The notes under the pieces: model-generated | Seen by the model: the letters and a program-made list of their open reading frames with translations, nothing else | What the model was told of the DNA's origin: nothing | Databases searched by the model: none | Program-made: the position numbers and the translations under genes | DNA from: a virus | Strand: one strand, 5' to 3' | Virus record (IMG/VR): IMGVR_UViG_3300032080_000001 | Location: 32,001 to 96,000 of that record | DNA: 64,000 nt | Part shown: positions 7,265 through 56,027 of the stretch, in pieces | How the letters are laid out: every line of letters starts with the position of its first letter | Position numbering within the stretch: position 1 is the stretch's first letter

Positions 7265-7293
7265 TTGACAAAGCGGTGTGACCCTATTAGCTT
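7265..7293 (+). promoter_or_regulatory. Sigma70-type promoter (GACCCTAT class)
   Basis: TTGACA-N17-TAGCTT with GACCCTAT directly before the -10. Confidence 0.8.
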
Positions 7294-8007: not shown

Positions 8008-9249
8008 GTGGCGCAAGCTGCACTTTCGGTCGGGGTGTCCAACCGAGACACCCCGGCTGACGCCACGTACCAGGCGTTCTTTGGTACGCGGTCCGGGCCG
8101 TTCGTCCCGATGTTGTCAGGGCTGCTCCGCGCACTTGGAGCAGCTTCTCTTTCGGACGGCGCTACCGGTACACTACTGTTATTGTACAGTGAGTACGTCC
8201 CGATGTCGCTCCGGAACGGGCACCTCGGGGACGATGGCTGGGTGATGGTGTGGCCGTCAAAGGAGCGGCTGGCCGAGGAGACGGGGAGGCGGCGCTCGAC
8301 GGTGAAGGAGCACCTTGCGGCGCTCGAAGCCCTCGGGGCTATCCGCCGCTCCAGAGAGCGGGTGAACGGACGCACGGGGGTGCTGTGGGTGCGCCCCACC
8401 CCCGCCCTCCTCGCGCACCTGGAGGCGAGGCCGGAGGTGCAGGCCACCCTGCGTCAGCGATTCAAGAGGCGCTACGACCCGCAGGTGACGCCCATCGAGT
8501 CGAGGTTCTTCCTGGCCGAAAATTCGGCCAGCACCTGGCCGGAAAACCGGCCACAACGGAAGAGTACTACGACCGAAGAAGAAGTAAACAGCAACACGCC
8601 GCAGGGGCGCCGCGCAGAGGACCGGACGCCGCTGGCGGAAATGGCCTGGCCGGAGGGCTGGGACGAGGGGCGGTTCGCCCGCTGGTTCGAGTACACGCAT
8701 GACGAAACGGTAGCCGACGTGAAGAGCATCTACGCGAGAATGGCCGAACTGCGGCAGACGCAGGACGCGGCCGAGGACGAGAGCGCCGAGGCCCGCGAAA
8801 AGCGGTTGGCGAAGCCGAAGTCGCAGCGGATGAACGGGGGCAGGAAGCAGGCGCCCAAGGTCGCGCGCACCGACACAGCGTCCGCTCTGATGCGGGACTT
8901 TAAGGCGCTGGTCACGACGAACTTCCCCAACGCGTACAACCCGCCGAACGACGTGAAGGCGCTTTCGCAGATGCGCATGCTCCTCGACCGGTACGGCGAG
9001 GCCGAGGTCCGGCGGCTCATGGAGTTCGTCGCTGACCCGACAACGTGGGGGCGTATCAAGACCAAGTGGCCGAAAATCGAGCTGTTTCAGCCCACTCCTG
9101 GTTGGCTGCTGGCCTGGAGCGAGTCGCTACTCCAGTGGATGAAGAGCGGCGCCCCCGATGCGGGGCAGGCTACCGGTCCGAAGCGCAGCGGCGGAGCCGA
9201 GGTTTACGACCGCGCTACGACCGACGCGAAGGGTCGCTCGACGTTCTGA
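8008..9249 (+). CDS. Replication initiator with N-terminal winged HTH
   Basis: LSDGA..LLLLY...VWPSKERLAEETGRRRSTVKEHLAALEALGAI; precedes the loader and helicase genes. Confidence 0.7.
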   Translation: MAQAALSVGVSNRDTPADATYQAFFGTRSGPFVPMLSGLLRALGAASLSDGATGTLLLLYSEYVPMSLRNGHLGDDGWVMVWPSKERLAEETGRRRSTVKEHLAALEALGAIRRSRERVNGRTGVLWVRPTPALLAHLEARPEVQATLRQRFKRRYDPQVTPIESRFFLAENSASTWPENRPQRKSTTTEEEVNSNTPQGRRAEDRTPLAEMAWPEGWDEGRFARWFEYTHDETVADVKSIYARMAELRQTQDAAEDESAEAREKRLAKPKSQRMNGGRKQAPKVARTDTASALMRDFKALVTTNFPNAYNPPNDVKALSQMRMLLDRYGEAEVRRLMEFVADPTTWGRIKTKWPKIELFQPTPGWLLAWSESLLQWMKSGAPDAGQATGPKRSGGAEVYDRATTDAKGRSTF

Positions 9250-10888: not shown

Positions 10889-11528
10889 CCTGACCCCGGC
10901 CGACCTCCAGCGGGCGAACATCCCCGAGAGGTACTGGAGCGCGACGTTCAAGGACGTACCGAAGGGGGCCGAGCACTGGGGCCCGGTGAAGACCTACCTG
11001 ACGGACCTGGAGTCCTTCCTCGACAACGGGGAGGGACTCTACCTCTGGTCCGTCGAGAACGGAACCGGCAAGACGGCGCTCGCGACGCTCATCCTGCGCC
11101 GCGCGCTGCGGCTGGGGTACACCGGCTACTACACGCGGTCCGAGGCGGCGAAGCGGGCGATGCAGGTGCCTGAGCGCGTGCTATTCGATGAGGCGACCAC
11201 GGTGGAGCAGCGTCTCCGCGCGGTGGACGTGCTGGTGTTGGACGACTTCGGCAAGGAGTACCGCTCGCAGAACGGCAGTATGTTCACCGAGAGCGCCATC
11301 GAGGACCTGGTGCGCGAACGCGTCCAGCGGCGCAAGGTGACGCTCTACACGGCGAACATTCCGCCGCGCAAGCTCGCGGATAACGGGCTGTTCACGGTGG
11401 ACCTCGCGGACGTACTTCGCGAGAGCGTGGGACACATCGAAGTGGTCGGCCCCGACCGGGGCGGGAAGTTGTGGCGCCGGGACGCCGCCACGGACCTCAT
11501 GGACCGCCTGTACGACGGGGATTCGTAA
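10869..11528 (+). CDS. DnaC/IstB-like helicase loader ATPase
   Basis: ANIPERYWSATF, Walker A NGTGKT, VLVLDDFGKE, TLYTAN. Confidence 0.85.
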   Translation: MSRTLRDLTPADLQRANIPERYWSATFKDVPKGAEHWGPVKTYLTDLESFLDNGEGLYLWSVENGTGKTALATLILRRALRLGYTGYYTRSEAAKRAMQVPERVLFDEATTVEQRLRAVDVLVLDDFGKEYRSQNGSMFTESAIEDLVRERVQRRKVTLYTANIPPRKLADNGLFTVDLADVLRESVGHIEVVGPDRGGKLWRRDAATDLMDRLYDGDS

Positions 11529-30603: not shown

Positions 30604-31217
30604 CGCTGAACGACAACTGGCTCGGCTTCGGGCGATGGAACGAGGAGTTTGCTGCCACCGCCGCGCAGGTGGACACGGCGGGGCTGTACGGGCCCCTGCG
30701 GGGCGTCACGGAAATCGAGTTCGGCCGCCTGCGGCGTGCTCTGCGCTGTACGGTGACGCCCTTCGACGGCGGTTACCACGTCTACGACCCGAAGGGTCGG
30801 GAAGGGGTACCCGAGGACGCGCTTCCGGGGGAGTTCGTGAACCTGGACGACGGCGCCGCCACCACGCGCTGTTACTGCGAGGACTTCCTCCTGCCGGGTG
30901 GCGCGCGTGGTGAGGGCGACGAGGCCCGGTCCGGCGAGGAGAGCGGCCGACCGTGTAAACACATCCTAGCAGCGTGCCTTGCTCACCCCGAGCATCGCAA
31001 GCAGCTGGAGCCCTTCGTACGAACGATGGAGCACCAGGACCGCGTCGCGGCAGCGGCTAAGAAGACCGTCACCGGCGAGGAGGCCGAGGCGGTGGCCCTG
31101 GCCGAGGAGGAAGGTGTGGGCCGCCTGCATGCACAGGTGGCTCTTACGGAAGCGAAGGGCGACGTGGACGCGGCGCGTAACCTCCTCCGTCAACGGGCGA
31201 AATGGATGCTACGATGA
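30600..31217 (+). CDS. SWIM zinc-finger protein with C-terminal EF-Ts-like UBA domain
   Basis: CYCEDF...PCKHILA (SWIM); EEGVGRLHAQVALTEAKGDVDAARNLLRQR. Confidence 0.65.
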   Translation: MTLNDNWLGFGRWNEEFAATAAQVDTAGLYGPLRGVTEIEFGRLRRALRCTVTPFDGGYHVYDPKGREGVPEDALPGEFVNLDDGAATTRCYCEDFLLPGGARGEGDEARSGEESGRPCKHILAACLAHPEHRKQLEPFVRTMEHQDRVAAAAKKTVTGEEAEAVALAEEEGVGRLHAQVALTEAKGDVDAARNLLRQRAKWMLR

Positions 31218-43104: not shown

Positions 43105-43517
43105 CGGTGAAGCTCTACGTGGACGGCGGAAACCTGGGCGCCAATCCCAGCCCGCTGGGCGTGTACTGGAGCGTGGGGCGTGAGCACGCGGACGGCTCCG
43201 TCGAGCTGCTGACGGAGCGCCAGGAGAGCGCGAGCTACACGTCTAACAACCACGCGGAATACCTGGCTCTCATCGACGCCCTGCGGCATGCGACGACGCT
43301 CTCCGGCCAGGAAGCCATCGAACGGGTGGTTATCCACTCTGACTCGCAGCTCATCGTGAACCAGTTCAACGGGAAGTGGACCATCAACGACCCGCTGCTT
43401 CGAGAGCTGTGCACGGCCGCCCATCGCGGCGCCGAGTTCCTTATCACTGGGCTGGGCGTGGACGTGGAGGTGACGTGGGTGCGTCGCGCGGAGAACGTGA
43501 AGCGGCTCGGACACTGA
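43101..43517 (+). CDS. RNase HI-like protein
   Basis: LYVDGG..GANP, SNNHAEY.AL, HSDSQLIVNQ, WVRRAEN. Confidence 0.85.
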   Translation: MTVKLYVDGGNLGANPSPLGVYWSVGREHADGSVELLTERQESASYTSNNHAEYLALIDALRHATTLSGQEAIERVVIHSDSQLIVNQFNGKWTINDPLLRELCTAAHRGAEFLITGLGVDVEVTWVRRAENVKRLGH

Positions 43518-44808
43518 CCATGACCATCGAAGACCAGGTCTACCGTGCCGCCGTGGAAATGGAGGTGCGCACGTTGCGGAAGGGCGCGGCTCGTCACGTT
43601 TGGCTGAGCGAGTTGGACTACGCCCGCGCCCAGCGTGAGGCCGATGCCGAGCATCGTATCCTGAACGTGCACCACATCTACCACGCAGGGAGGTATATCC
43701 CGGAGGGTTTTGCGGCGCTGATGGACGCGACCTTGAACGTCACGACTATCCTGCGCCTAGAGAGCTAAGCCGATGAAGACAAAAACATACGCGGTGTCGG
43801 TGGTGCTGACGCGGATGAACACCGCGAGTATCAGCATCCACAACTTCCTCGGGGTCCGCACGGTGGCCAGCGGCCCGGATGCCGAAGACGCTGCTCGGGG
43901 AAGCGTGGTACAAGAGGCGTTGCAGGCCAATCCCGGTTTCGCGGTACACTTGATTCTCGCGCATGAGGTAGGCTGATGGGTACTGACGAACCGTGGAGCC
44001 CGGAGCGGGAGCGAGCGATGCGTGCCCGTACTCTTGAAGTCAAGGCGTACACGGGCTACGGCATCCCGTACGAGCATCTCAGGGGTTTGCCCGGCATCAA
44101 GGTGCAGCGGTTGGTGCCCGCCAAGCACAACGCTGGAATGTGCTCCTGCACCTGTCACGACGAGCCAGGCACCACGCACTTCATGGCGTGCTGCACGCGG
44201 ACGTACGAGCAGCGCATCCCGAAGCTGCTGCGCCCTACAGACTCGGAGTTCCTGGCGCTCTGGCAGGCTTCTTACGAACGCTTCTTGGCCGCTGAAACCA
44301 ACGAGGACCGCGACCGCGAGATTTACAACGGCCGCCTCCTGGTCCAGAAGCGCCTGCGGCGAGAAGACTGGAACCGCGTGCCGAACCCCGCGACCCTCGT
44401 ACGAAAGGACTGAGATGCACCCGAGCCACAAGACCCGCTTCTCCGACGCTTCCCGCTTCGACTACGTCTGCGTCTACTGCGGCGCGACCGACGAGACCGG
44501 GAACGGGTGGGGAGAGCTGGCGAAGCCATGCCCCAAGGCACCGCCTCCGGCCGCCGAGCCGTGAGGCTGCGGGCCATCCTCTGCGCCCTGTGGTTCGGCA
44601 TCATACCGTGGTGGGTCTACGAGGAAGAGCGGCACTACCCGGAGCCGTACCTGGAGCACCTTTGGCTGAACCTCGTCTACGCGGCGCACTGGGCACTCGG
44701 CCGACAAACGCTTGGAGATGTACGCTTCGAGCTTGAGAACAACTAGCAGCCGAGGCTCGTACGCTGGGCGCCGAGGAACGGGAACGGTAAAGTAAACATA
44801 GTCTGCCC

Positions 44809-44837
44809 TTGACATACCGGTACCACGCTGTTATACT
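44809..44837 (+). promoter_or_regulatory. Strong promoter of the ncRNA island, with TACCGGTA in the spacer
   Basis: TTGACA-taccggtaccacgctgt-TATACT. Confidence 0.85.
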
Positions 44838-44843
44838 AGTGGC

Positions 44844-45500
44844 ACGACGACGGACGACTAACGCGACGCCACGCAGCGCGCTTCCCGCCCGACAGGCCAG
44901 GCCCTAGAGCCAGTGGCGACACAGGGAATGCGGACGCGCAGCAAGACGAGACGCAGAAGTCCTGAGACGAACAACGGGGCCGCGAATGAACGCCTCGCAC
45001 ATTGCGGTGCAACTCAGGGCTGGTGAAGGATACGGCGTTAAGCAGTAGCCAGCCTCCTTCGATGGGGATACGCCGTTCGTCCCGCAGTGTGGGCTCCATG
45101 CAGTTGGCGCAGCGCGCCGAGGCTGATTGACAACCGACGTTCTGTGACGAAGGTACACGGCCGCGACCACCGCGAGTCGGCCCCACGTTGACCCGGCAAC
45201 CCCGGAGAGTGGGTTGTGGAGGAAGCAAGTCTCCTTACGAGCGCCAGAAGAGAGACCGACTCCCGTGTACCACGCCGTGCCGAGGCCGCGCAATCTCTTC
45301 CTCGGCGTAACACCCCGCTCTTTCGTGTTGACCCGTTGGTAGGCCACGGCCGAAAACGACGAGCGAAGGATGCGGTTTAGTCGGAGGAGATATCCCGCCT
45401 GTATAGCACACGCGAGAAGACTCCTTGTTAAGACAGCCGCGCGGGGCGGCACGTGAGGAAAAGGGCTCACCCCTCCCTGGAGGGGGACACGCCGTCACCT
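44844..45500 (+). ncRNA. Candidate large structured ncRNA (~650 nt)
   Basis: No + strand ORF. Nested helices: cctgag/ctcagg, acggcgt/acgccgt, ggtacacgg/ccgtgtacc, gagtcgg/ccgactc, gccgagg/cctcggc. Confidence 0.55.
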
Positions 45501-45513
45501 CACCCCGCACTCT

Positions 45514-45578
45514 GCTCCTCTGGTGTAAGCAGCACCCCGTGTTCAGCGGCAGTCGAGGTTCAAGTCCTCGGAGGAGCA
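45514..45578 (+). ncRNA. tRNA-like RNA with truncated anticodon arm
   Basis: Acceptor GCTCCTC/GAGGAGC+A, D arm gtgt/gcac, T arm cgagg-ttcaagt-cctcg; anticodon arm only ~13 nt. Confidence 0.65.
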
Positions 45579-45688
45579 TATCCGACTCCGGCACACGACG
45601 GAGAAAGCCCACGGAGCCTTGACTGGCCGAGAGACCTGCCGGTGGGATAAAGGATTCAGGCTGACAGCCGGGAAAGACCGGCACCTAC

Positions 45689-46084
45689 GGGCTCGCCAGG
45701 CTTCGACAGGTGCAGACGCAGGTGGAGGGTATGCGTGCAAGGGGCGTCTTCCGGTCTCTTTGAACACACGGAAGAAACTTCAAATGCCACTCGTAACGAC
45801 GTGGTTGCCGTGAACGCGATTCCCGCGTACGCCCAGGCGTAAAACCCTGCGGTAGGCACCGGCCAAACCGACTCCGATAGGGGCGGCCGTACTGCATCGG
45901 AGGACACCGGGAAAGACTGGGGTGGACGGCCTGTGCACCTAAAACACGGCAGGGAAGGGGGTCAGACCTCCAGCGGGCCGCGTACGCCCGACCGCCCAAC
46001 GAATGGGTCACACTACGCTACGCACGCTGAATAGTCCGAAACAGGCTTTGTGCTTGGACGCGGGTTCGATTCCCGCCGAGTCCA
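45689..46084 (+). ncRNA. ssrA: tmRNA
   Basis: Acceptor stem GGGCTCG/CGAGTCC-A with a G3-U wobble, 5' ttcgac, T arm gcggg-ttcgatt-cccgc, tag ORF 45786-45842 (ATRNDVVAVNAIPAYAQA*). Confidence 0.92.
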
Positions 46085-46088
46085 CTAA

Positions 46089-46228
46089 GAGGAGTCAGGT
46101 CCGATACTGGTAGGTGGGACGGGACGCGCACCGCCACCGGAGGGAGGTGAGAACCGCTGATGACCCTGTGCACGGGTAGGCGGCAACTTGCCCCGAGGAA
46201 ATATCCGGTAGCCCACCCCTGGCTCCTC
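46089..46228 (+). ncRNA. Candidate ~140-nt structured RNA
   Basis: Termini pair (gaggagtcagg/cctggctcctc) with further internal helices; starts 5 nt after the tmRNA. Confidence 0.5.
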
Positions 46229-46295
46229 CTGTTAGGCCGTACCGAACCGCAGCGGTTTCTGCGGGAGCTTCACCACCTCAAAGAAAGGAACCGCA

Positions 46296-46427
46296 ATGGA
46301 CCCGCTCATGGAGAATCCGTACCCGACCACCGGCGACCCGACCGAGTACCCCGTGCTGCCGCCGCTGGAGGACGACCCCAACGGCCCCGCGCAGACTCCG
46401 GGCGCGCTGTTCCCTCTGCCGGGCTGA
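46296..46427 (+). CDS. 43-aa Pro/acidic peptide (absent from the ORF track)
   Basis: AAGGA SD; MDPLMENPYPTTGDPTEYPVLPPLEDDPNGPAQTPGALFPLPG. Confidence 0.5.
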   Translation: MDPLMENPYPTTGDPTEYPVLPPLEDDPNGPAQTPGALFPLPG

Positions 46428-46449
46428 CCGACGCCCTCAAGGAGTGGGG

Positions 46450-46629
46450 ATGAGTATTTTCAGCGCACCTGCGGTCTCCATCACGGAGACCGACAACACC
46501 GAACGTCCTCCGCTGCCCGGCGAGTCGAGCACGCTGCTGATTCCCGGCAGTGCGGAGCAGGGCGGGGGCGGCATCGGGGACCCGAGCGGTGGGGGAGACC
46601 CGCCTCCCCCGGTGGAGCTGGGAGACTGA
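46450..46629 (+). CDS. Small Pro/Gly-rich peptide
   Basis: AAGGAG SD before the ATG at 46450. Confidence 0.5.
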   Translation: MSIFSAPAVSITETDNTERPPLPGESSTLLIPGSAEQGGGGIGDPSGGGDPPPPVELGD

Positions 46630-46703
46630 CCTGGAACCCGGCCCGCAGCGGGTAGAAGTCTCTGCGGGACTGCAATCAACCACTTCACTCGAAAGGCACG
46701 ACC

Positions 46704-47117
46704 ATGCTGTTCGGAAGCGCACAACAGGAGGAGCAGTTCAAGGAGAACCACTTCTTCGGACTGCATGACACCTGTGGCGGGGGTTACACTTCGCCCGCAG
46801 GTTGGGCGGAGGACGCGGCGTGGCACTGCGTCGGGGAATACGCGGCCATCGAGTACGAGAACGGGAAGCGTGTCGGTCTGCTCCTTCCGTACGCGAGCTA
46901 CAGCAATCCGCGCAACTACGTCGAGAGCGCCTGGGCGAGGGACGCTATCTTGCGCGTGCGTACCTCGATGACCGGGGACAGCGCCGCGCACTTCGACACC
47001 AGCATCCCGACGAAGGGCATCAGCGACATCCAGTGGTTCTTCGCGTACGCGACTGACGAGAACTTCGCGGGGCCGCAGTACCAGAAGGACCCGCCCGCCC
47101 CGCAGCGGGTGCAGTAA
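46704..47117 (+). CDS. Hypothetical protein
   Basis: GAAAGG SD and typical codon usage. Confidence 0.6.
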   Translation: MLFGSAQQEEQFKENHFFGLHDTCGGGYTSPAGWAEDAAWHCVGEYAAIEYENGKRVGLLLPYASYSNPRNYVESAWARDAILRVRTSMTGDSAAHFDTSIPTKGISDIQWFFAYATDENFAGPQYQKDPPAPQRVQ

Positions 47118-47271
47118 TTCTGCGGGTGGTGGAGAAGACGACCGTAACCGGTTGTCCCCAAACGAGGCTCGGGCGTGACGCCTCTGCGAAGCACGCCCCG
47201 TGGGCAATAGTCGGCTGGCAAGTTACCGGTGCTCTGCGCCAACCCACGTAAAACAAGTGACGTAACCGGGT

Positions 47272-47371
47272 GGGACGATGGTGGCCGGGTGAAGTAGGTA
47301 GCCCGGTGGACGGCAAGGCCGTCCGGTGCACCGCTCAAGGTGCTTCCGGGGTTCGAGTCCCCTCAGTCCCT
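47272..47371 (+). ncRNA. Multi-arm tRNA-like RNA
   Basis: gggac/gtccc closing stem, three hairpins, and T arm gggg-ttcgagt-cccc; no canonical anticodon loop. Confidence 0.5.
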
Positions 47372-47595
47372 TACCCACTCCACGCAACGCAGGAAAGCCG
47401 TAGCGCCCGCGATAGAGGCAGGCGCCGCTTTGGGGCGAAAGCCTGGCGAGTACGTGATAAGAAGTGGGTTTGTAAAGAAGGGCCGGTAGCCGTAGCGTGG
47501 ACACGGCTGCGTGGTAGGCTCCACGGGTCGCGCAAGCGACCGCCTGACTTTTGAATGAGGGCCGGAAGTACCTGTTGTGGCAGGGAAACCGTTGC

Positions 47596-47668
47596 GCCGC
47601 GTTAGCTCAGTTGGTAGAGCAGGGGACTCTTAATCCCAAGGTCGGAGGTTCGAACCCTCCACGCGGCA
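47596..47668 (+). tRNA. tRNA-Lys(CTT)
   Basis: Canonical cloverleaf, anticodon loop ctCTTaa, no encoded CCA. Confidence 0.95.
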
Positions 47669-48030
47669 TTAAGCGAAGTAGGGCGGGGATGAACGCGGCC
47701 GATAACAACGGTGCCGCCGACCTGTCGATTGCAACGGCCAGCCTGAGAGCGTACGGCTCAGGGGATACCCTACTTCGTGATTCTGGAGCGAGGTGGCGTG
47801 GGGCGGAGTCACAGCTTCGCCTTAAAGCGGAAGGAGAAGTCCCACCTTCCCGCCTCGTAGAAGGTGCCCCGTTGACTGTGCTGGACGGCCCGGCTTGCCG
47901 GGGACGGTGTCCAGACTTGAAAAGCACTCACGCCACGCGGCGAGGACGGGTAAGCGCGCGTGGAGGTTTACCGGTTCCTGCCAGTAGGCGAATACCGGCT
48001 CCCTCCCCTCCTTCGCGAAAGGCGAATCGT

Positions 48031-48273
48031 ATGGCTCGCACGACCAAGATGCTCCTGCTGGCGGTGCTGGCGGCCGTGGTCTCGATGACCGCGTACGCGT
48101 GCAGCACTCCCGCCGCGCCCGAGACCCCTGCCAGCATTCGTCACGGCAGCGGCGTGCTCGTGGGCGGCAACCGCACCGACAGCACCGCCGCCACGAACGG
48201 CACCAACAGCACGCCCGTCACCGCGACGGACACCACCGGCCGGACCGGGGGCACGACGCTCGGCGGCAACTGA
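48031..48273 (+). CDS. Small secreted lipoprotein-like peptide
   Basis: Signal peptide ending in AYA|C; two GxxxxGGN repeats. Confidence 0.65.
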   Translation: MARTTKMLLLAVLAAVVSMTAYACSTPAAPETPASIRHGSGVLVGGNRTDSTAATNGTNSTPVTATDTTGRTGGTTLGGN

Positions 48274-48393
48274 CGCTCTACGCCGGGCGGTTCTTACGGG
48301 CCGCCCGGTCGTGTCTTCCTGTATTGACAAACCGCTGTGACCCGATTAGCTTAAGTCACGGTGCACGACGGCAACGACAACTCAGGAGGCAGT

Positions 48394-48618
48394 ATGGAGC
48401 GCACCCCGGTAAACAGCAGCAACATCGCGTCGGTGGGGTACACCCGTAACCCGGATACCGTGGGGATGGGAACCCTGGAAGTCGAGTTCAAGAACGGCGC
48501 GGTCTACCAGTACGACGACGTGCCGTGGGAGACGCACGACGCCCTGCTGCGGGCGGAGTCGGCGGGGAGCGTCTTCTCGCACTCCGTTCGGGGCGTGTTC
48601 ACGGGGAGGCGCGTGTGA
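48394..48618 (+). CDS. KTSC domain protein
   Basis: MERTPVNSSNIASVGY...LEVEFKNGAVYQYDDVP...AESAGS; promoter at 48324. Confidence 0.9.
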   Translation: MERTPVNSSNIASVGYTRNPDTVGMGTLEVEFKNGAVYQYDDVPWETHDALLRAESAGSVFSHSVRGVFTGRRV

Positions 48619-48901
48619 CCACTGTCTCCATTCGTTTCTTCGGCGTGCCCGAAGACCGGTACGAGCGCTCGCCCTACCACGACGACGTGGTGCGCATCCA
48701 GCGAGTGCTGCGCGAACGGGGGTGGGACGCGACGTACCAGCAGGCAGAGGGAGCCTGGGACGCTTACTCGGACGACGTAGAGGCAATCTGGATGGACCTG
48801 CCCAAGACCGACGACTGCCTCTACGAGCGCGTGAGGGGATACATCGAGGCGGTTGACTAGCCGCCTCTCATTCGTAAGAACTACCAACCGGACTAGAAGC
48901 C

Positions 48902-49261
48902 ATGCCTCCGTACAGCCAGTTCAACGGCGTCCACGAGTTCGCCTTCGAGGACAACGCAACCCTGTCCAACGCCGTGGACATGGGGGGCTCGCGCCTCATG
49001 GCGATGCGCGTGCCACCCGCGTGGGAAGGCACGACCGTGACCTTCCTGGCCGCCGTCGAGCCGGACGGCGACTTCTTCTCCGTCTACGACGACGAGGGCG
49101 CGGAGGTCAAGGTGACGGTGGCCCCGGACCGCATCGTGGGTGTGGACAAGGTCGCCGGGAAGCTGGCCGCTCTCCGCTACCTCAAGCTGCGCTCGGGTAC
49201 GCAGGCGGCGCCACAGCCGCAGTCGAGCGCGCGCGCCTTCACCGTGATGACGAAGCGATGA
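48902..49261 (+). CDS. Beta-rich hypothetical protein (possibly virion-associated)
   Basis: LSNAVD...PPAWEGT.VTF...YLKLRSGT; coupled to the next gene. Confidence 0.55.
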   Translation: MPPYSQFNGVHEFAFEDNATLSNAVDMGGSRLMAMRVPPAWEGTTVTFLAAVEPDGDFFSVYDDEGAEVKVTVAPDRIVGVDKVAGKLAALRYLKLRSGTQAAPQPQSSARAFTVMTKR

Positions 49262-50049
49262 GCCACCGCATCCTGCTGCTCGGCGTCGGCGGGGACCCGA
49301 GCCACCAGCACGAGCCCGCCGAGGGGCCGTTCTCGTTCCTGAGCGTGGCGAACGCCGCGTTCGTGTACGACGGGCGCATGCTCTCGGGCGCGGACGGGTC
49401 CAACCTCTCGTCCTTCGCGGACGGGTCTACCTCGGGCCTCTCGGTGACGCAGAGCGACCCGCTCAAGCGGCCCATCCTCCGGACAGGCGCCAACGGCCTA
49501 GGCGGGCACCCGATTCTGCACTTCGACGGCGCGCAGACCCTATCGCGGCCCAACACGCCCGCTACGGCGCTGTCGCTCTCGGACCAGATGACGTTCTACG
49601 CGCTGGTGCGCCTGACGAGCTACGAGTTCATGCCGCTCGGGTGGGAGCAGTACCCGGACGAGGACGGCACCAAGTACGGGCGCATCCGCCCGGTCGCCTC
49701 CGGCGGCACGCTGTACTTCCAGCACGGTGGGGACCCGACGCTGTTCGTCAGCGCCTCGGGCATCGCGGGAGACGCGCCCAACGACCTGCTGAACAACTGG
49801 CGGTGGGTGGAGTACTGGCGCAACGGCTCCGTGGCCGAGCTTCGAGTGGGCGGGGCGCTGGTCGCCTCCGGAGCGATGCCGAACCCGCTCACGCAGGACC
49901 GCTCGGGGGAGTTCTTCCTGGGCGCGGGGCCGTCCGGAAGCCTGCCCCTCTCCGGGGACGTGGCGGCTGTGGTCGGCTACAAGCGAGCGCTCAACGCCAG
50001 CGAGCGGGATTACCTCGCGCTGGGCGTCGAATCGGCTTGGGCGCTGTAG
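49258..50049 (+). CDS. LamG/concanavalin-like domain protein
   Basis: TQSDPLKRP...NGLGGHPILHFDG...LSGDVAAVVGYKRALNASE pattern. Confidence 0.65.
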   Translation: MSHRILLLGVGGDPSHQHEPAEGPFSFLSVANAAFVYDGRMLSGADGSNLSSFADGSTSGLSVTQSDPLKRPILRTGANGLGGHPILHFDGAQTLSRPNTPATALSLSDQMTFYALVRLTSYEFMPLGWEQYPDEDGTKYGRIRPVASGGTLYFQHGGDPTLFVSASGIAGDAPNDLLNNWRWVEYWRNGSVAELRVGGALVASGAMPNPLTQDRSGEFFLGAGPSGSLPLSGDVAAVVGYKRALNASERDYLALGVESAWAL

Positions 50050-50094
50050 AACGCAACATCCGGCCGTGCGTCCTTCGGGGCGTGCGGCCGTCTT

Positions 50095-50178
50095 GCCCCC
50101 GTGCTGGAATTGGTAGACGGACCGGACTCAAAATCCGGGGGCCGAAAGGCTGTGTGGGTTCGAGTCCCACTGGGGGTA
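50095..50178 (+). tRNA. tRNA-Leu(CAA)
   Basis: Cloverleaf with variable arm gcc-gaaa-ggc and anticodon loop ctCAAaa. Confidence 0.95.
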
Positions 50179-50803
50179 CTTCTCATTCCGGAGGACCGGT
50201 GCAGGTCTTGTTCGTGAGGGTCAGCGAAAAGCTTCACGACACCGTGAACGTGAAGCTGTTTGAAGAAGGTTTAAGCGGCACGCACCTGGGCACGCTGCAT
50301 CTTCGTAAGAAGACGTGGGCGGAGTTGGAAGAAATCCTCCGCCGAGGTCTTCTCGCCCAAGGCAAACTCCTCGTCGTGCAGCAAAGCAACAGGCCCGCTC
50401 GCGCGGCGTAACCCCTTGACAAAACAGCACGACCCTATTACGTTTGGGTCCTCAGCACGTGGGACTCTCGTACGAAGTGCCGGAACTACCGGTACAGTAC
50501 CAACAGCGCACGAAGACCGATGACGAAGAATTTCCGCTCCAAGTTCTCGGCCGCCACCGGCACCGCGCTCATCGACGGCACCATCGCCCAGTTCCGCAAG
50601 ATGCGGGAGAGTCTGGAGAGCGGTATCGAGCACCTGACGAACGCGCGCAACGCGAACGACAACGAGGTCGAGACCAGCCGCCAACGGCACGCGGCCTTCG
50701 CGCACGCCAAGGCGCAGGAGAACGGCGTGCTCGACGCGAAGATGGAGGAGGCCCGGCATGTGCTGGCCGCCCTGCCGGGCGCGCCGCGTGAGAAGGAGGT
50801 GGT

Positions 50804-51712
50804 GTGATGCCCGAGGTGCGCTCGTACTCCAGCATCTACAACATCGACCACCGCGTCGCGGCCGACATCTTCGACGGACCGGTCGCCGTGCAGGAGAAGG
50901 TGGACGGCTCGCAGTTCTCGTTCGGCGTGTACGACGGCGAGGTCGCCGTGCGCTCGAAGGGGCAGCAAATCATCCTCGACGCGCCGCCGAAGATGTTCAA
51001 GAAGGCCGTGGACACGGTGCTCCGGCTGGCCCCGCGCCTGGTGCCCGGCTGGACGTACCGAGGCGAGTACCTGGAGAAGCCGAAGCACAACGCGCTGGCG
51101 TACAGCCGGGTCCCCAAGGACCACATCATCCTGTACGACATCGACCGGGGCCACCAGGACTACCTGTCCCCCGAGGAGACGTTCGCGGAGGGCGTTCGCC
51201 TGGGGCTGGAAGTGGTGCCGCTGCTGTACTACGGCGTGCTCGCCGGTCCCGCCGAGGCGCGGGCGCTGCTCCCCGAGGAGAGCATCCTGGGCGGCGTGAA
51301 GCCCGAGGGCGTGGTCGTGAAGAACTACGCCAAGCTGGACCCGGAGAAGAAGACGCTGATGGTCAAGTTCGTGACCGAGGCGTTCCGCGAGGTCCACAAG
51401 AAGGCGTGGGGCGAGAGCAACCCCGGCCAGAAGGACATCATCCAGCGCCTCATCGAGACGTACAAGGTCGAGGCCCGGTGGGAGAAGGCCGTGCAGCACC
51501 TTCGCGACGCCGACGTGCTAACCGGCACGGTGAAGGACATCGGCGCGCTGATAAAGGAGGTGCCGAGGGACGTGCGGAAGGAGGAAGAGGACGCCATCAA
51601 GGACGCACTCTTCGCCTACGCGTGGCCGCACATCCTGCGCGGCATCACGTCCGGCCTGCCGCAGTGGTACAAGGCACGGCTGGAGGCCGAGGCGATGGAG
51701 GCCGCCGCATGA
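50804..51712 (+). CDS. RNA ligase (Rnl2-like nucleotidyltransferase)
   Basis: QEKVDGSQ (motif I), RGEY, LYDI, VVPLLY, PEGVVVK, MVK. Confidence 0.8.
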   Translation: MMPEVRSYSSIYNIDHRVAADIFDGPVAVQEKVDGSQFSFGVYDGEVAVRSKGQQIILDAPPKMFKKAVDTVLRLAPRLVPGWTYRGEYLEKPKHNALAYSRVPKDHIILYDIDRGHQDYLSPEETFAEGVRLGLEVVPLLYYGVLAGPAEARALLPEESILGGVKPEGVVVKNYAKLDPEKKTLMVKFVTEAFREVHKKAWGESNPGQKDIIQRLIETYKVEARWEKAVQHLRDADVLTGTVKDIGALIKEVPRDVRKEEEDAIKDALFAYAWPHILRGITSGLPQWYKARLEAEAMEAAA

Positions 51713-52973
51713 ACTGGCTACGCAAGCTGCTACAGCGGCGCCTGTATCTCCGCATCGTGTTCAAGAGCGGACACGTCGAGACGGTGCGGGTGACGCGGTA
51801 CGAGGTGACGCACAACCTGTCCCGACTCACGTGGACGGACCCTCCGGAGCCGTACAGACCACGCGCGCTGAGCGGGCTACGAATGGACCACGTGAGCGCC
51901 GTGCTCTCTGAGTGGCGCTTCTTCTGACGAACAAAGGGAGGGCGTGACCCGCCCTCCCTGCAAAACGAAAGACAACAGATGTCATTCAAACCGTACGTCA
52001 AGCAGCCCGAACGCAAGACCTCCCGGAGCCACCGTATCCTGGACCGACTGCTCGCGGCGCTCATCTACGTCGCGGCCGGGCTGCTGGTCTTCCTGTGGGT
52101 GGTGGTCGTCACGGTGTGGAACGCACTGGTCAGCGCCCTGCCGTGGGTCATCGCGGTTCTCGCCATCGTGTGGGTGCTGCACTTCTGGCTCGGGGTGCTC
52201 TGATGCCCCGGCTCTACGTGCCGAGCATCGGGGACCAGCTTCGCCTGACGAAGGACTGGACCTTCCGGCTGCACTACGAGTACCGCAACAGCAAGCTCCT
52301 GGCGGCCATCGGGGCAAAAGTCCACGGCTACGGGTCTCCGGCGTACACGCGCCCGAACGGAGAGCCGCTGTTCACCGGCTACTACAACGAGGGCCCGGAC
52401 CTTCCGCACGAGACAATGACACTCCCGGCGGGGACCGTCCTCAAGGTGGACCGCATCTACATCAAGAAGGGCAGCGGGGACTTCGACTCGATGACCTTCT
52501 ACGTGAAGAAGGAGAGCGGCGCCGCGCTGGACAAGAAGTTCTACGGCGCCCGCTTTTGGGTGAAGCTCGCGGACGCCAACACCATCGAGTTCGAGGAGGT
52601 GGCAGAGTGACGGCACCCGACTTGTTCGGTGGCGAGAAGCCCATCGAAGCCCCGTTGCTGGAGCACAAACTTCGCGACTTGCTCGTGAAGCACCGCTACG
52701 ACAGCCTGTCGCGGCCCGGTACGCAACGTAAGCTGATGCCACACCATATCGACGCCCTGGTGAAGGACCTGCTTCCGTTCATCGACAGCGAGACGCAGGT
52801 TGCGTGGGAGGCCGGGGTAGATGCGGCGGGCGGCATCGACTGATGACTCTGCGGTCCCACGCACGGGGCTTGCGCCAAGCGACACGTAAGAGGGACAAAT
52901 ACCCTTGACAAAACGCCCTGACCCCATTAGGTTCAGGGCGTTCTTGCTAACGACGCCTGACGAATGGAACACG

Positions 52974-54314
52974 ATGACGAGTAACATCTTCGGTACGCAC
53001 GATGCCAACACCCTCGCGCAGTTCGAGGACGTGCAGAGCCGCGCGCTGCGCGCTGCACTCATGTCGGACGGGCACCTCGGCTACGTCATGCCTATCGGCG
53101 GTGTGGCGGCGTACGACAATAAGGTGAGCGTGGTGGGGGTCGGGATGGATATCGCGTGCGGGAACGCTGCCATTCGTACCAACCTGACGCTGGAGGGGCT
53201 CACCGGCATCACCGCCGAGGAAGCGAGGAGCAACCCGCACCGTGTGGCGGCGAACCGCGTGCTGAACGAGCTGGCCGACACCATCCAAAGCACCATTTCG
53301 TTCGGCATCGGTCGTAAGAACCAGAACGACGACGCCCCCGTGGACCATCCGTTGTTCCTGGACCCGCGCTGGTACGCGGTACCGAACACCGGGAGCTTCC
53401 GCCAGGACCTCATCGAGAAGGCGCGGCGCCAGCTCGGCACGGTCGGCTCGGGCAACCACTACGTGGACGTATTCTACGACGAGCAGGGCCGCATTTGGGT
53501 AGGCGTGCACTTCGGCTCGCGAGGGCTCGGTCACACCATCGCCACGAACTTCATCGCCATCTCGCAGGGCGGAACGTGGGGAGACCGGGCGAAGGAAGTG
53601 GAGGTACTGCTGGACCTCGACACGCCGATGGGGCACGACTACTGGAGCCTGATGAACCTCGCGGGGGCGTATGCCTACATTGGCCGCGAGTGGGTGGCGC
53701 GCAAGGTGGTGGAGCTGCTGGGCGGCGCCGAGCTGGAGCTGGTGCACAACCACCACAACTTCGCCTGGAAGGAGTTTCACGCCCTGCGGGAACCGCCCAA
53801 CGGAACACAATTCCACGGTGGCACCTCCTCGGTGCGTGAGGTGGTCGTGGTCCGCAAGGGTGCGACTCCCGCCTTCCCTGGCCAGAAGGGCTTCGTCGGC
53901 GGCAGCATGGGCGACGACTCGGTCATCCTCCGGGGCGCCGACTCGGAGGAGCCCATGACCCCGTGGGAGGAAGAGGCGAACGACGCGGTGTGGGCCGCGC
54001 AGGAGGCCGCGCTCTTCTCCACCGTTCACGGTGCGGGCCGCGTGATGAGCCGCACGGCCGCCGCCGGGAAGCGCGACCGCAAGACCGGGCAGGTGAAGGT
54101 ACCCGGCGCCATCTCTCCGGAGATGATGAAGACGTGGCTCGCCAAGAAGGGTGTCATCCTGCGCGGTGGTGGGCTAGACGAGGCACCGCAGGCGTACCGT
54201 CGCCTGCACGAGGTGCTGCCACAGCAGCGCGGCACGGTGGAAGTGTTGCACACGCTGTCGCCGCTGGTCGTGGTCATGGCCGGAGCCAACGAATTCGACC
54301 CGTACAAAGACTGA
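52974..54314 (+). CDS. rtcB: RtcB RNA ligase
   Basis: DGHLGYVMPIGGV, DIACG, GTVGSGNHY, HFGSRG, HNHHN, RKGATPA, STVHGAGR, DEAPQAYR; promoter at 52905. Confidence 0.95.
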   Translation: MTSNIFGTHDANTLAQFEDVQSRALRAALMSDGHLGYVMPIGGVAAYDNKVSVVGVGMDIACGNAAIRTNLTLEGLTGITAEEARSNPHRVAANRVLNELADTIQSTISFGIGRKNQNDDAPVDHPLFLDPRWYAVPNTGSFRQDLIEKARRQLGTVGSGNHYVDVFYDEQGRIWVGVHFGSRGLGHTIATNFIAISQGGTWGDRAKEVEVLLDLDTPMGHDYWSLMNLAGAYAYIGREWVARKVVELLGGAELELVHNHHNFAWKEFHALREPPNGTQFHGGTSSVREVVVVRKGATPAFPGQKGFVGGSMGDDSVILRGADSEEPMTPWEEEANDAVWAAQEAALFSTVHGAGRVMSRTAAAGKRDRKTGQVKVPGAISPEMMKTWLAKKGVILRGGGLDEAPQAYRRLHEVLPQQRGTVEVLHTLSPLVVVMAGANEFDPYKD

Positions 54315-55047: not shown

Positions 55048-55494
55048 GTGGCGCGGGTCATCATCGCGGGCTCGCGGAGCTTCACCGACATTCGTTACGT
55101 GAAACTGGCGGTGAAGCTTACGCTGGAGCGGCATCCGGGTCTCAGCATCACCGAGGTGGTGTCCGGCAAGGCGCGAGGGGCGGACACTCTCGGGGAGTGG
55201 TGGGCAAAGAAGAACAGCATCCCGGTGAAGGAGATGCCTGCTCCGTGGGACGACCTCACCCGACCGGGTGCGAAGATTCGTACGAATGCGTGGGGCAAGA
55301 AATACAACGCCAACGCGGGCTTCGAGCGCAACCGTGACATGGCAAAGTACGCCGCCGACGACCCGTACGGACAGGGCGGCCTCATCGCCCTTTGGGACGG
55401 CGAGTCGAACGGCACGCTCGACATGATTGAGCACGCCAAGGCGTACAACCTGTGGGTCGAGATGTTCACCAAACGCTTAAAGGCACCGGAATGA
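55048..55494 (+). CDS. SLOG-family protein (YspA/DUF2493-like)
   Basis: IIAGSRSF, VVSGKARGADTLGE.WA, AGFERN.DM, WDGESNGT.DMI. Confidence 0.85.
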   Translation: MARVIIAGSRSFTDIRYVKLAVKLTLERHPGLSITEVVSGKARGADTLGEWWAKKNSIPVKEMPAPWDDLTRPGAKIRTNAWGKKYNANAGFERNRDMAKYAADDPYGQGGLIALWDGESNGTLDMIEHAKAYNLWVEMFTKRLKAPE

Positions 55495-56027
55495 CAAAAT
55501 TGGAACGCGCGCGCCAGTTCGCGCAAGAGAAGCACGCCAGACAGACGTACAACGAGCGCCCGTATGTCCATCACCTCGATGGGGTGGTCATGGTACTGCT
55601 GCGGTTCGGTCGCTGTGCCGAGAACGTCACCGTTCCGGCGATGCTGCACGACGTGCTGGAAGACACAGACACTACGCGGGAAGAGCTGGTCGAGGTGTTC
55701 GATACGCAGACCGCCGACACGGTAAACTACGTTACCGACCAGCCGGGTAAGAACCGGGCAGAGCGGCACCGCCTCACGTACGAGCGCCTGGCGAAGGGCG
55801 ACGAGGGGCTGTACGTGGAGTTCATCAAGCGGGACGCTCGCACGGTTAAGCTGGCGGACCGCATCGCCAACGTAGAGACCAGTCTCGCCGCCGAGGGGAA
55901 GAGCTTCTTCGGCATGTACCGCAAGGAGTACCCCTTCTTCCGCGCCATGCTGCATGTGCCGGGCGAGAACGAGGAGATGTGGGCGCACCTCGATGCGCTG
56001 ATGGCCTCGGACTGGAAGGTGAGCTGA
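55491..56027 (+). CDS. HD-domain (p)ppGpp hydrolase-like protein (small alarmone hydrolase / Mesh1-like)
   Basis: FAQEKHARQ...PYVHHL, LHDVLEDT, VKLADRIAN. Confidence 0.85.
   Translation: MTKLERARQFAQEKHARQTYNERPYVHHLDGVVMVLLRFGRCAENVTVPAMLHDVLEDTDTTREELVEVFDTQTADTVNYVTDQPGKNRAERHRLTYERLAKGDEGLYVEFIKRDARTVKLADRIANVETSLAAEGKSFFGMYRKEYPFFRAMLHVPGENEEMWAHLDALMASDWKVS

Follow-up and report, generated by a model that had tools for sequence, protein, structure and literature searches.

A long non-coding stretch upstream of the tmRNA gene of a high-GC soil phage, read as a possible operon leader in front of a tRNA-like element

The window analysed here is a stretch of 64,000 nt. It covers bases 32001-96000 of an IMG/VR virus record that is 123,873 bp long and has direct terminal repeats and a G+C content of 65%. 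The record is a lytic-looking, high-GC phage from soil without close known relatives. All genes inspected lay on the plus strand, including those for a family A DNA polymerase, a helicase, a RecA-like protein, an ATP-dependent DNA ligase, an RNA ligase and RtcB. ARAGORN found three RNA genes in the whole genome, a tmRNA and two tRNAs, all of them inside the window, and Rfam agreed at the gathering score. The features of the region were the following (positions are those of the window unless stated otherwise).

44809-44837, plus strand: sigma-70-type promoter (TTGACA, 17-nt spacer, TG, TATACT; 11 of 12 consensus matches)
44815-44822, no strand assigned: TACCGGTA palindrome within the spacer of the promoter, immediately following the -35 hexamer
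44845-45512, plus strand: putative untranslated leader, approximately 668 nt, corresponding to the candidate RNA of the first-pass annotation
45152-45271, plus strand: local hairpin domain, closed by a 9-bp and a 7-bp helix (120 nt)
45443-45513, plus strand: GC-rich hairpin immediately preceding the tRNA-like element (z −3.18, −36.2 kcal/mol)
45513-45579, plus strand: tRNA-like cloverleaf (67 nt), immediately after the end coordinate of the candidate RNA
45580-45688, plus strand: spacer of 109 nt, from the cloverleaf to the tmRNA gene
45689-46087, plus strand: tmRNA gene (ARAGORN, with 46085 as the end of its call; RF00023 at 58.9 bits against a cut-off of 47, full-length, model positions 1-374)
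46296-46427: ORF of 43 aa with a ribosome-binding site and codon periodicity
46704-47117: ORF of 137 aa with a ribosome-binding site and codon periodicity, in no Pfam family
47596-47668, plus strand: tRNA-Lys(CTT) (ARAGORN, Rfam)
48032 (start): lipoprotein-like ORF
50095-50179: tRNA-Leu(CAA) (ARAGORN, Rfam)

An RNA-repair style gene set was present just downstream of the RNA genes (50804-51712, 52905-54314 and 55452-56027), with an RNA ligase (PF09414), RtcB (52905-54314) and an HD-domain protein as its members.

The promoter at 44809-44837 was the sole sigma-70-like site detected by a motif scan of 43500-51000, in which shuffled sequences averaged 0.7 sites. Judged from the motif, transcription would start near 44844. 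On the plus strand, no terminator-like site was found by motif scan from this promoter to 49051, and the next plus-strand promoter of the phage's stereotyped family was located at 48324. No promoter of the tmRNA gene's own was found, and a scan of the spacer 45580-45688 was likewise negative. In the motif scans, the stretch thus had the layout of an operon leader, with a promoter upstream, same-strand RNA genes downstream and no terminator between them. Since the scan gave no terminator-like site, a transcript would run through the leader to the downstream RNA genes. By this reasoning from promoter and terminator scans, the proposal of the first-pass annotation that the stretch heads the tmRNA/tRNA cluster is supported.

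The TACCGGTA palindrome occurred in 38 copies in the genome, none of them inside the leader, and its position in the promoter suggests that it may be a candidate operator or repressor site of a phage regulator. Some other promoters carried a copy that overlapped their spacer or -10 element (genome positions 142, 46328, 89514, 92566 and 123718). Genome-wide, approximately 50 stereotyped promoters were recognised (TTGACAA-N7-TGACCCnATTA-N3-T, with a GTATA variant in the right-hand part of the genome), for example at window positions 7265, 9294, 12934, 29509, 48324, 50416, 52905 and 63372. All but one were on the plus strand, and most were at most 60 nt from a start codon preceded by GAAAGG. In IMG/VR, the consensus of these promoters gave 15 single matches, which is in the order of chance by a rough, uncomputed estimate.

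Between the promoter and the tmRNA gene lay approximately 670-850 non-coding bases. The longest run without codon periodicity in the whole 123,873-bp genome spanned 44741-46270, and the second-longest (47051-47890) surrounded tRNA-Lys. The three-phase GC spread was at most 0.20 across 44775-46175, compared to 0.3-0.7 in the flanking genes. Plus-strand ORFs of at least 40 aa inside the stretch measured 40-65 aa and had TTG or GTG starts. Among the ORFs of at least 10 aa in 44838-45688, only two were preceded by a Shine–Dalgarno (SD)-like motif; both started with TTG or GTG, and their GC3 was 0.54-0.71 against approximately 0.9 in real genes. The seven longest ORFs of both strands had no Pfam match at E ≤ 1. 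Lacking periodicity, convincing SD-led ORFs and Pfam matches, the stretch right after the promoter was confirmed to be free of ORFs, as had been noted at first pass. Small proteins missed by the ORF lists would not be out of place in the island, as ORFs with good ribosome-binding sites are found further down (e.g., 46296-46427), but the two SD-preceded ORFs with their TTG/GTG starts and low GC3, and the absence of periodicity, make it barely credible that the stretch encodes any.

Two other origins were tried and rejected: a recent pseudogene, because there was no codon periodicity, and a template of a DGR or another internal duplicate, because a search of the genome gave the self match only. 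We also considered that the stretch might act as DNA, i.e., as a replication origin, packaging site or protein-binding region. It is non-coding and has the TACCGGTA palindrome at its promoter, but the palindrome is missing from the leader itself, and a repeat search yielded only short two-copy matches, without repeats, iterons or an AT-rich tract. The GC content of the stretch (0.63-0.64) was similar to that elsewhere in the genome, and no turn was seen in the cumulative skew. A role at the DNA level is therefore very improbable.

RNA families in the region were searched with cmscan, using all 4227 families of Rfam 15 and a limit of E ≤ 10, once for 44000-51000 and once for 44830-45700 alone (871 nt). 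The cloverleaf at 45513-45579 had an acceptor stem of 8 bp and a perfect T arm (CGAGG-TTCAAGT-CCTCG). The D-like arm and the anticodon-like arm were both shortened, each with a loop of 5 nt, and CCA was not encoded. Its fold, the best seen at the locus, was stable (z −3.79, with none of 200 shuffles as stable). ARAGORN called it at a relaxed threshold only, not by default, and the tRNA model RF00005 did not match it at E ≤ 10. Neither the 7-nt anticodon loop of a canonical tRNA nor detection by the tRNA model was observed, and only the acceptor and T arms were canonical. The mascRNA-menRNA model (RF01684) matched the element with 24.3 bits (E = 0.021 in the 871-nt scan; gathering score 42.5), in an alignment that spans the acceptor and T arms only. 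On the plus strand of the genome, perfect TTCRA T arms occurred just four times, in this element, the tmRNA and the two tRNAs; T-arm-like hairpins numbered five in the genome and none in 44844-45500. The element is probably an RNase P processing signal or a decayed tRNA.

The tmRNA gene had a G3:U70 pair and both halves of the tRNA domain, and did not encode CCA (ARAGORN). Its tag, ATRNDVVAVNAIPAYAQA, was unusual with 18 residues, and ARAGORN reported 'tag not identified'. The assignment was based on the full-length match above the cut-off, the tRNA-like domain and the tag reading frame. Twelve nucleotides at the tmRNA 5' end (45690-45701) were perfectly complementary to 47441-47452, a non-coding site upstream of tRNA-Lys; by a rough estimate that was not computed, chance alone would give approximately one match of this kind per 3.7 kb.

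Downstream of the tmRNA gene, the "RNA island" was partly coding, with the ORFs of 43 and 137 aa and the lipoprotein-like ORF. The 137-aa protein matched only itself among 5.8 billion proteins. Among 1.84 billion representatives it had seven distant homologues with 28-43% identity, and a search of IMG/VR with their alignment found nothing. Two of the seven were encoded on JGI contigs reaching 145 and 151 kb, which probably belong to large phages, and the family may accordingly travel with such RNA islands. Non-coding stretches flanked tRNA-Lys on both sides (47118-47595 and 47669-48031). A near-T-arm (GGGG-TTCGAGT-CCCC) was located near 47347-47363, and 47281-47371 was called as tRNA-Leu-like by ARAGORN, only at its loosest threshold. 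These stretches may hold further decayed tRNAs or tRNA-like elements.

With roughly even confidence, we interpret the stretch as an untranslated 5' leader or spacer, without a proven fold, at the head of a mixed RNA-gene operon. Transcription would be driven by the strong sigma-70-type promoter at 44809-44837, perhaps under operator control via TACCGGTA, and begin near 44844. The predicted transcript would pass through the leader (to 45512), the cloverleaf (45513-45579), the 109-nt spacer and the tmRNA (45689-46087), and then continue through the small ORFs, the 137-aa ORF and tRNA-Lys up to the promoter at 48324. Cleavage by the host RNase P is predicted at two 5' ends, that of the tRNA-like element and that of the tmRNA, and would set the leader free as a by-product RNA, approximately 670 nt long. 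Of this model, the promoter motif, the lack of coding signal, the RNA genes and the tRNA-like fold were observed, while the transcription start, co-transcription and cleavage are predictions. The leader may represent a spacer whose sequence was once that of RNA genes and has since drifted. In bacteria, the precursors of tRNA, tmRNA and rRNA operons contain leaders and spacers which are removed by RNase P and other RNases. The phage locus resembles such operons in having a promoter, untranslated RNA and then same-strand RNA genes, the 5' ends of which would be formed by RNase P, with no terminator-like site between.

It differs from them in length, with 845 nt before the tmRNA, compared to approximately 200 nt for the only other standard tmRNA gene inspected, on a 131-kb IMG/VR contig with 64% G+C (L187). 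That gene, at 8527-8982 of the contig (117.9 bits), was missed by ARAGORN, and its last 28 nt were identical to those of the phage tmRNA. It followed a strongly coding gene at a distance of approximately 200 nt, without a long leader, and could be the ssrA of a host at the edge of a prophage. Its short distance argues against a plain leader in the phage. So do the leaders behind the other listed promoters of the phage, which were tens of nucleotides long and mostly reached a start codon within 60 bases. Phage genomes are usually compact, so that 670-850 non-coding bases behind a strong promoter hint at a function.

At first pass, the leader had been described as an ornate RNA with long-range nested helices. 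The cited complementary segments that were checked were indeed found at their places (ggtacacgg, 45152-60, with ccgtgtacc, 45263-71; gagtcgg, 45174-80, with ccgactc, 45256-62; cctgag, 44961-66, with ctcagg, 45013-18), and the minimum free energy (MFE) fold used the 9-bp (45152-60/45263-71) and 7-bp (45174-80/45256-62) pairs. Their frequency, however, was that of chance. Inverted exact k-mer pairs at most 400 nt apart numbered 66 for k = 6, 19 for k = 7, 3 for k = 8 and 1 for k = 9, against 60.3, 15.3, 4.3 and 1.1 as the means of 300 dinucleotide shuffles. The MFE z-score of 44844-45500 was −0.07 on the plus and −0.82 on the minus strand. For 44845-45512 it was +0.27, and the ensemble diversity was worse than in 90% of 40 shuffles.

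Local structure was likewise ordinary. The domain at 45152-45271 reached z −3.02 when cut at the closing helix (1 of 200 shuffles as stable), with boundaries picked after the helix had been seen; by RNALfold its z was −2.21, which is not exceptional for the genome. The best local structure overlapping the candidate was the GC-rich hairpin at 45443-45513; no U run followed it and the terminator scan made no call there. Positions under local structures of z ≤ −3 made up 8.8% of the candidate, compared to an average of 24% in 657-nt windows on the plus strand, and in 72% of the genome's 657-nt windows the mean local z was at least as low as that of the candidate. Duplex energies were indistinguishable from those of shuffles for the pairs leader–tmRNA, leader–trailer, spacer–trailer, leader–tRNA-Lys and leader–tRNA-like element (TLS). 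With no folding statistic standing out, an ornate long-range fold of the leader was not supported.

Sliding 120-nt z-scores gave no signal on either strand, the tmRNA included. The tmRNA was also without a thermodynamic signal as a whole (z −0.65, sliding windows no lower than −1.4). Since the phage's own tmRNA fails the folding tests, they have little power in this GC-rich genome. They leave room for a real fold, which is a further point against reading the stretch as a plain leader.

The sequence, random-looking by every folding measure, would suit decay: a former tRNA or RNA-gene array, or genes since lost, would have left a functionless spacer, with the tRNA-like element as the last recognisable pseudogene. 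We regard this as possible, though rather unlikely. The element has intact acceptor and T arms next to degenerate D and anticodon arms, as expected from decay, and more tRNA-like candidates were proposed elsewhere in the island, such as 47281-47371, if only at ARAGORN's loosest setting. Within 44844-45500, however, neither a further T-arm-like hairpin nor a match to the tRNA model at E ≤ 10 was found, there was no residual codon periodicity, and such useless DNA tends to be lost from phages.

The Rfam search also bears on the suggestion, made at first pass, that the leader resembles large phage RNAs without matching them. No family matched 44844-45500 at E ≤ 10 except as noise. The sole match from a ribozyme clan, RNase MRP on the minus strand, was rejected as noise (13.4 bits against a 50-bit cut-off). 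The absence of cmscan matches at this threshold indicates that the stretch is not GOLLD, ROOL, OLE, RNase P RNA or an intron, and the first-pass failure to recognise GOLLD, ROOL, RNase P or group I/II intron signatures was thereby borne out with covariance models.

No relative carrying the island was found among the phage records, IMG/VR, metagenome and genome contigs retrieved. By blastn against 50,697 phage records, the region 44700-46200 gave no matches but two of 40 nt, both to the tmRNA 3' end. When this 3' end served as the query, three unrelated IMG/VR contigs and no genome contig were returned. Among 301 Gemmatimonadota genomes queried with leader plus tmRNA, 55 matched, nearly all within the final 35 nt of the tmRNA; two short matches to leader sequence (28-29 nt) were taken as chance. 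Two of five further genomes matched, at the tmRNA 3' end only.

Searches via protein genes gave a similar result. Single-protein scans of IMG/VR found no relative. The DNA polymerase was less than 60% identical to anything in the 50,697 GenBank phage records, with the matches listed at 26-34%, and only eight polymerases among 5.8 billion proteins were 40-63% identical to it. Better relatives were located in Logan or JGI contigs, those of the polymerase on contigs of 40-107 kb. One relative in IMG/VR was a 31.5-kb fragment with 53% polymerase identity, rated 17% complete, which contained no tmRNA and no match to the island. A metagenome scan with generic polymerase patterns recovered only relatives of at most 36% identity. 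Homologues of the RNA ligase led to 80 loci in IMG/VR, all of them without a tmRNA, and to 41 in genomes, one of which (L192) had tmRNA calls. No locus of either set had more than three proteins in common with the phage, or DNA similarity to the island beyond tRNA. The RNA ligase had thousands of homologues, the best 120 listed being 53-65% identical, and they were spread over many unrelated viral contigs and MAGs.

The stretch was present in a single sequencing run, of DNA and probably from the source sample; no RNA run containing it was listed. The contigs of this run gave the same contig, with no variant over the leader.

In a further explanation, the leader functions as a large structured RNA and represents a new class like GOLLD and ROOL, with its 3' end formed by RNase P at the tRNA-like element. 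Its size of approximately 670 nt, the strong promoter and the tmRNA and tRNA neighbours fit such an RNA, as does its place in the longest non-coding run of a dense genome. The compact tRNA-like element lies exactly at the 3' side, with its weak mascRNA match of 24.3 bits, and the negative folding tests were equally negative for the phage tmRNA. On the other side stand the MFE z-scores of −0.07 and +0.27, an ensemble diversity worse than in 90% of shuffles, helices at chance frequency and the 72% of windows with a mean local z as low. In addition, no homologue was found in phage GenBank records, the 80 IMG/VR loci, the 301 Gemmatimonadota genomes or the fragmentary relative. With ordinary folding statistics, chance helices and no homologue, the new RNA class proposed at first pass was not upheld, and we consider this explanation improbable. 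In its boldest form, the approximately 670 nt would be a stable large RNA of a new class, restricted to one small clade among uncultured soil phages. Its 3' end would be made by RNase P at the mascRNA-like element, as a phage counterpart to MALAT1/mascRNA, and it would be co-expressed with the tmRNA; we think this a long shot. As it would be co-expressed with the phage tmRNA, such an RNA might perhaps act on host translation or ribosome rescue.

Several known systems offer parallels. According to passages in PMC5737381, GOLLD and ROOL often occur near tRNAs and in prophages. The leader shares with both, and with OLE, a length of several hundred nucleotides, the lack of coding capacity, the presence in a phage and the position beside tRNA-type genes. 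In contrast to them, it has no Rfam match (E ≤ 10), no demonstrated multistem fold and no family of homologues, and its genome is that of a high-GC soil phage.

In MALAT1/mascRNA and NEAT1/menRNA, a long non-coding RNA receives its 3' end from RNase P at a tRNA-like element. The phage locus similarly has a long non-coding stretch followed by a cloverleaf with mascRNA-like acceptor and T arms, but the phage element is below the gathering score (24.3 against 42.5 bits) and its cleavage is a prediction. The mascRNA system is eukaryotic and nuclear, and the likeness is therefore an analogy, not homology. The bacterial Y-RNA-like YrlA contains a tRNA-like domain, has Ro60/Rsr as its partner and is often encoded near rtcB. 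As in YrlA, the phage has a tRNA-like module without a working anticodon arm, and RtcB is encoded in the genome (52905-54314). Unlike in YrlA, there was no TROVE/Ro60 gene in the phage, no such Rfam match, and no long closing Y-RNA stem was seen.

As it stands, the stretch is best taken as an unusually long leader of an RNA-gene operon, which is a known kind of element. If the leader is only a spacer, the locus is ordinary, a phage operon of RNA genes whose untranslated head is unusually long. If it is kept in related phages, a large RNA from a high-GC genome, linked to a tmRNA and terminating at a tRNA-like processing signal, would be a new context, and would offer a testable connection between a large phage RNA and ribosome rescue. 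To our knowledge, GOLLD and ROOL, which are large phage RNAs encoded next to tRNA-type genes, have yet to be assigned a function.

The tetranucleotide GATC was absent from the island (44838-48323) and occurred only 30 times in the 123,873 bp. The most stable local hairpins on the plus strand were at window position 10993-11063 and at genome positions 104472-104584 (past the window's end), 730-856 and 30649-30720. Their RNALfold z-scores of −6.4 to −7.6 were far beyond anything in the candidate region, and the four may be terminators or regulatory hairpins.
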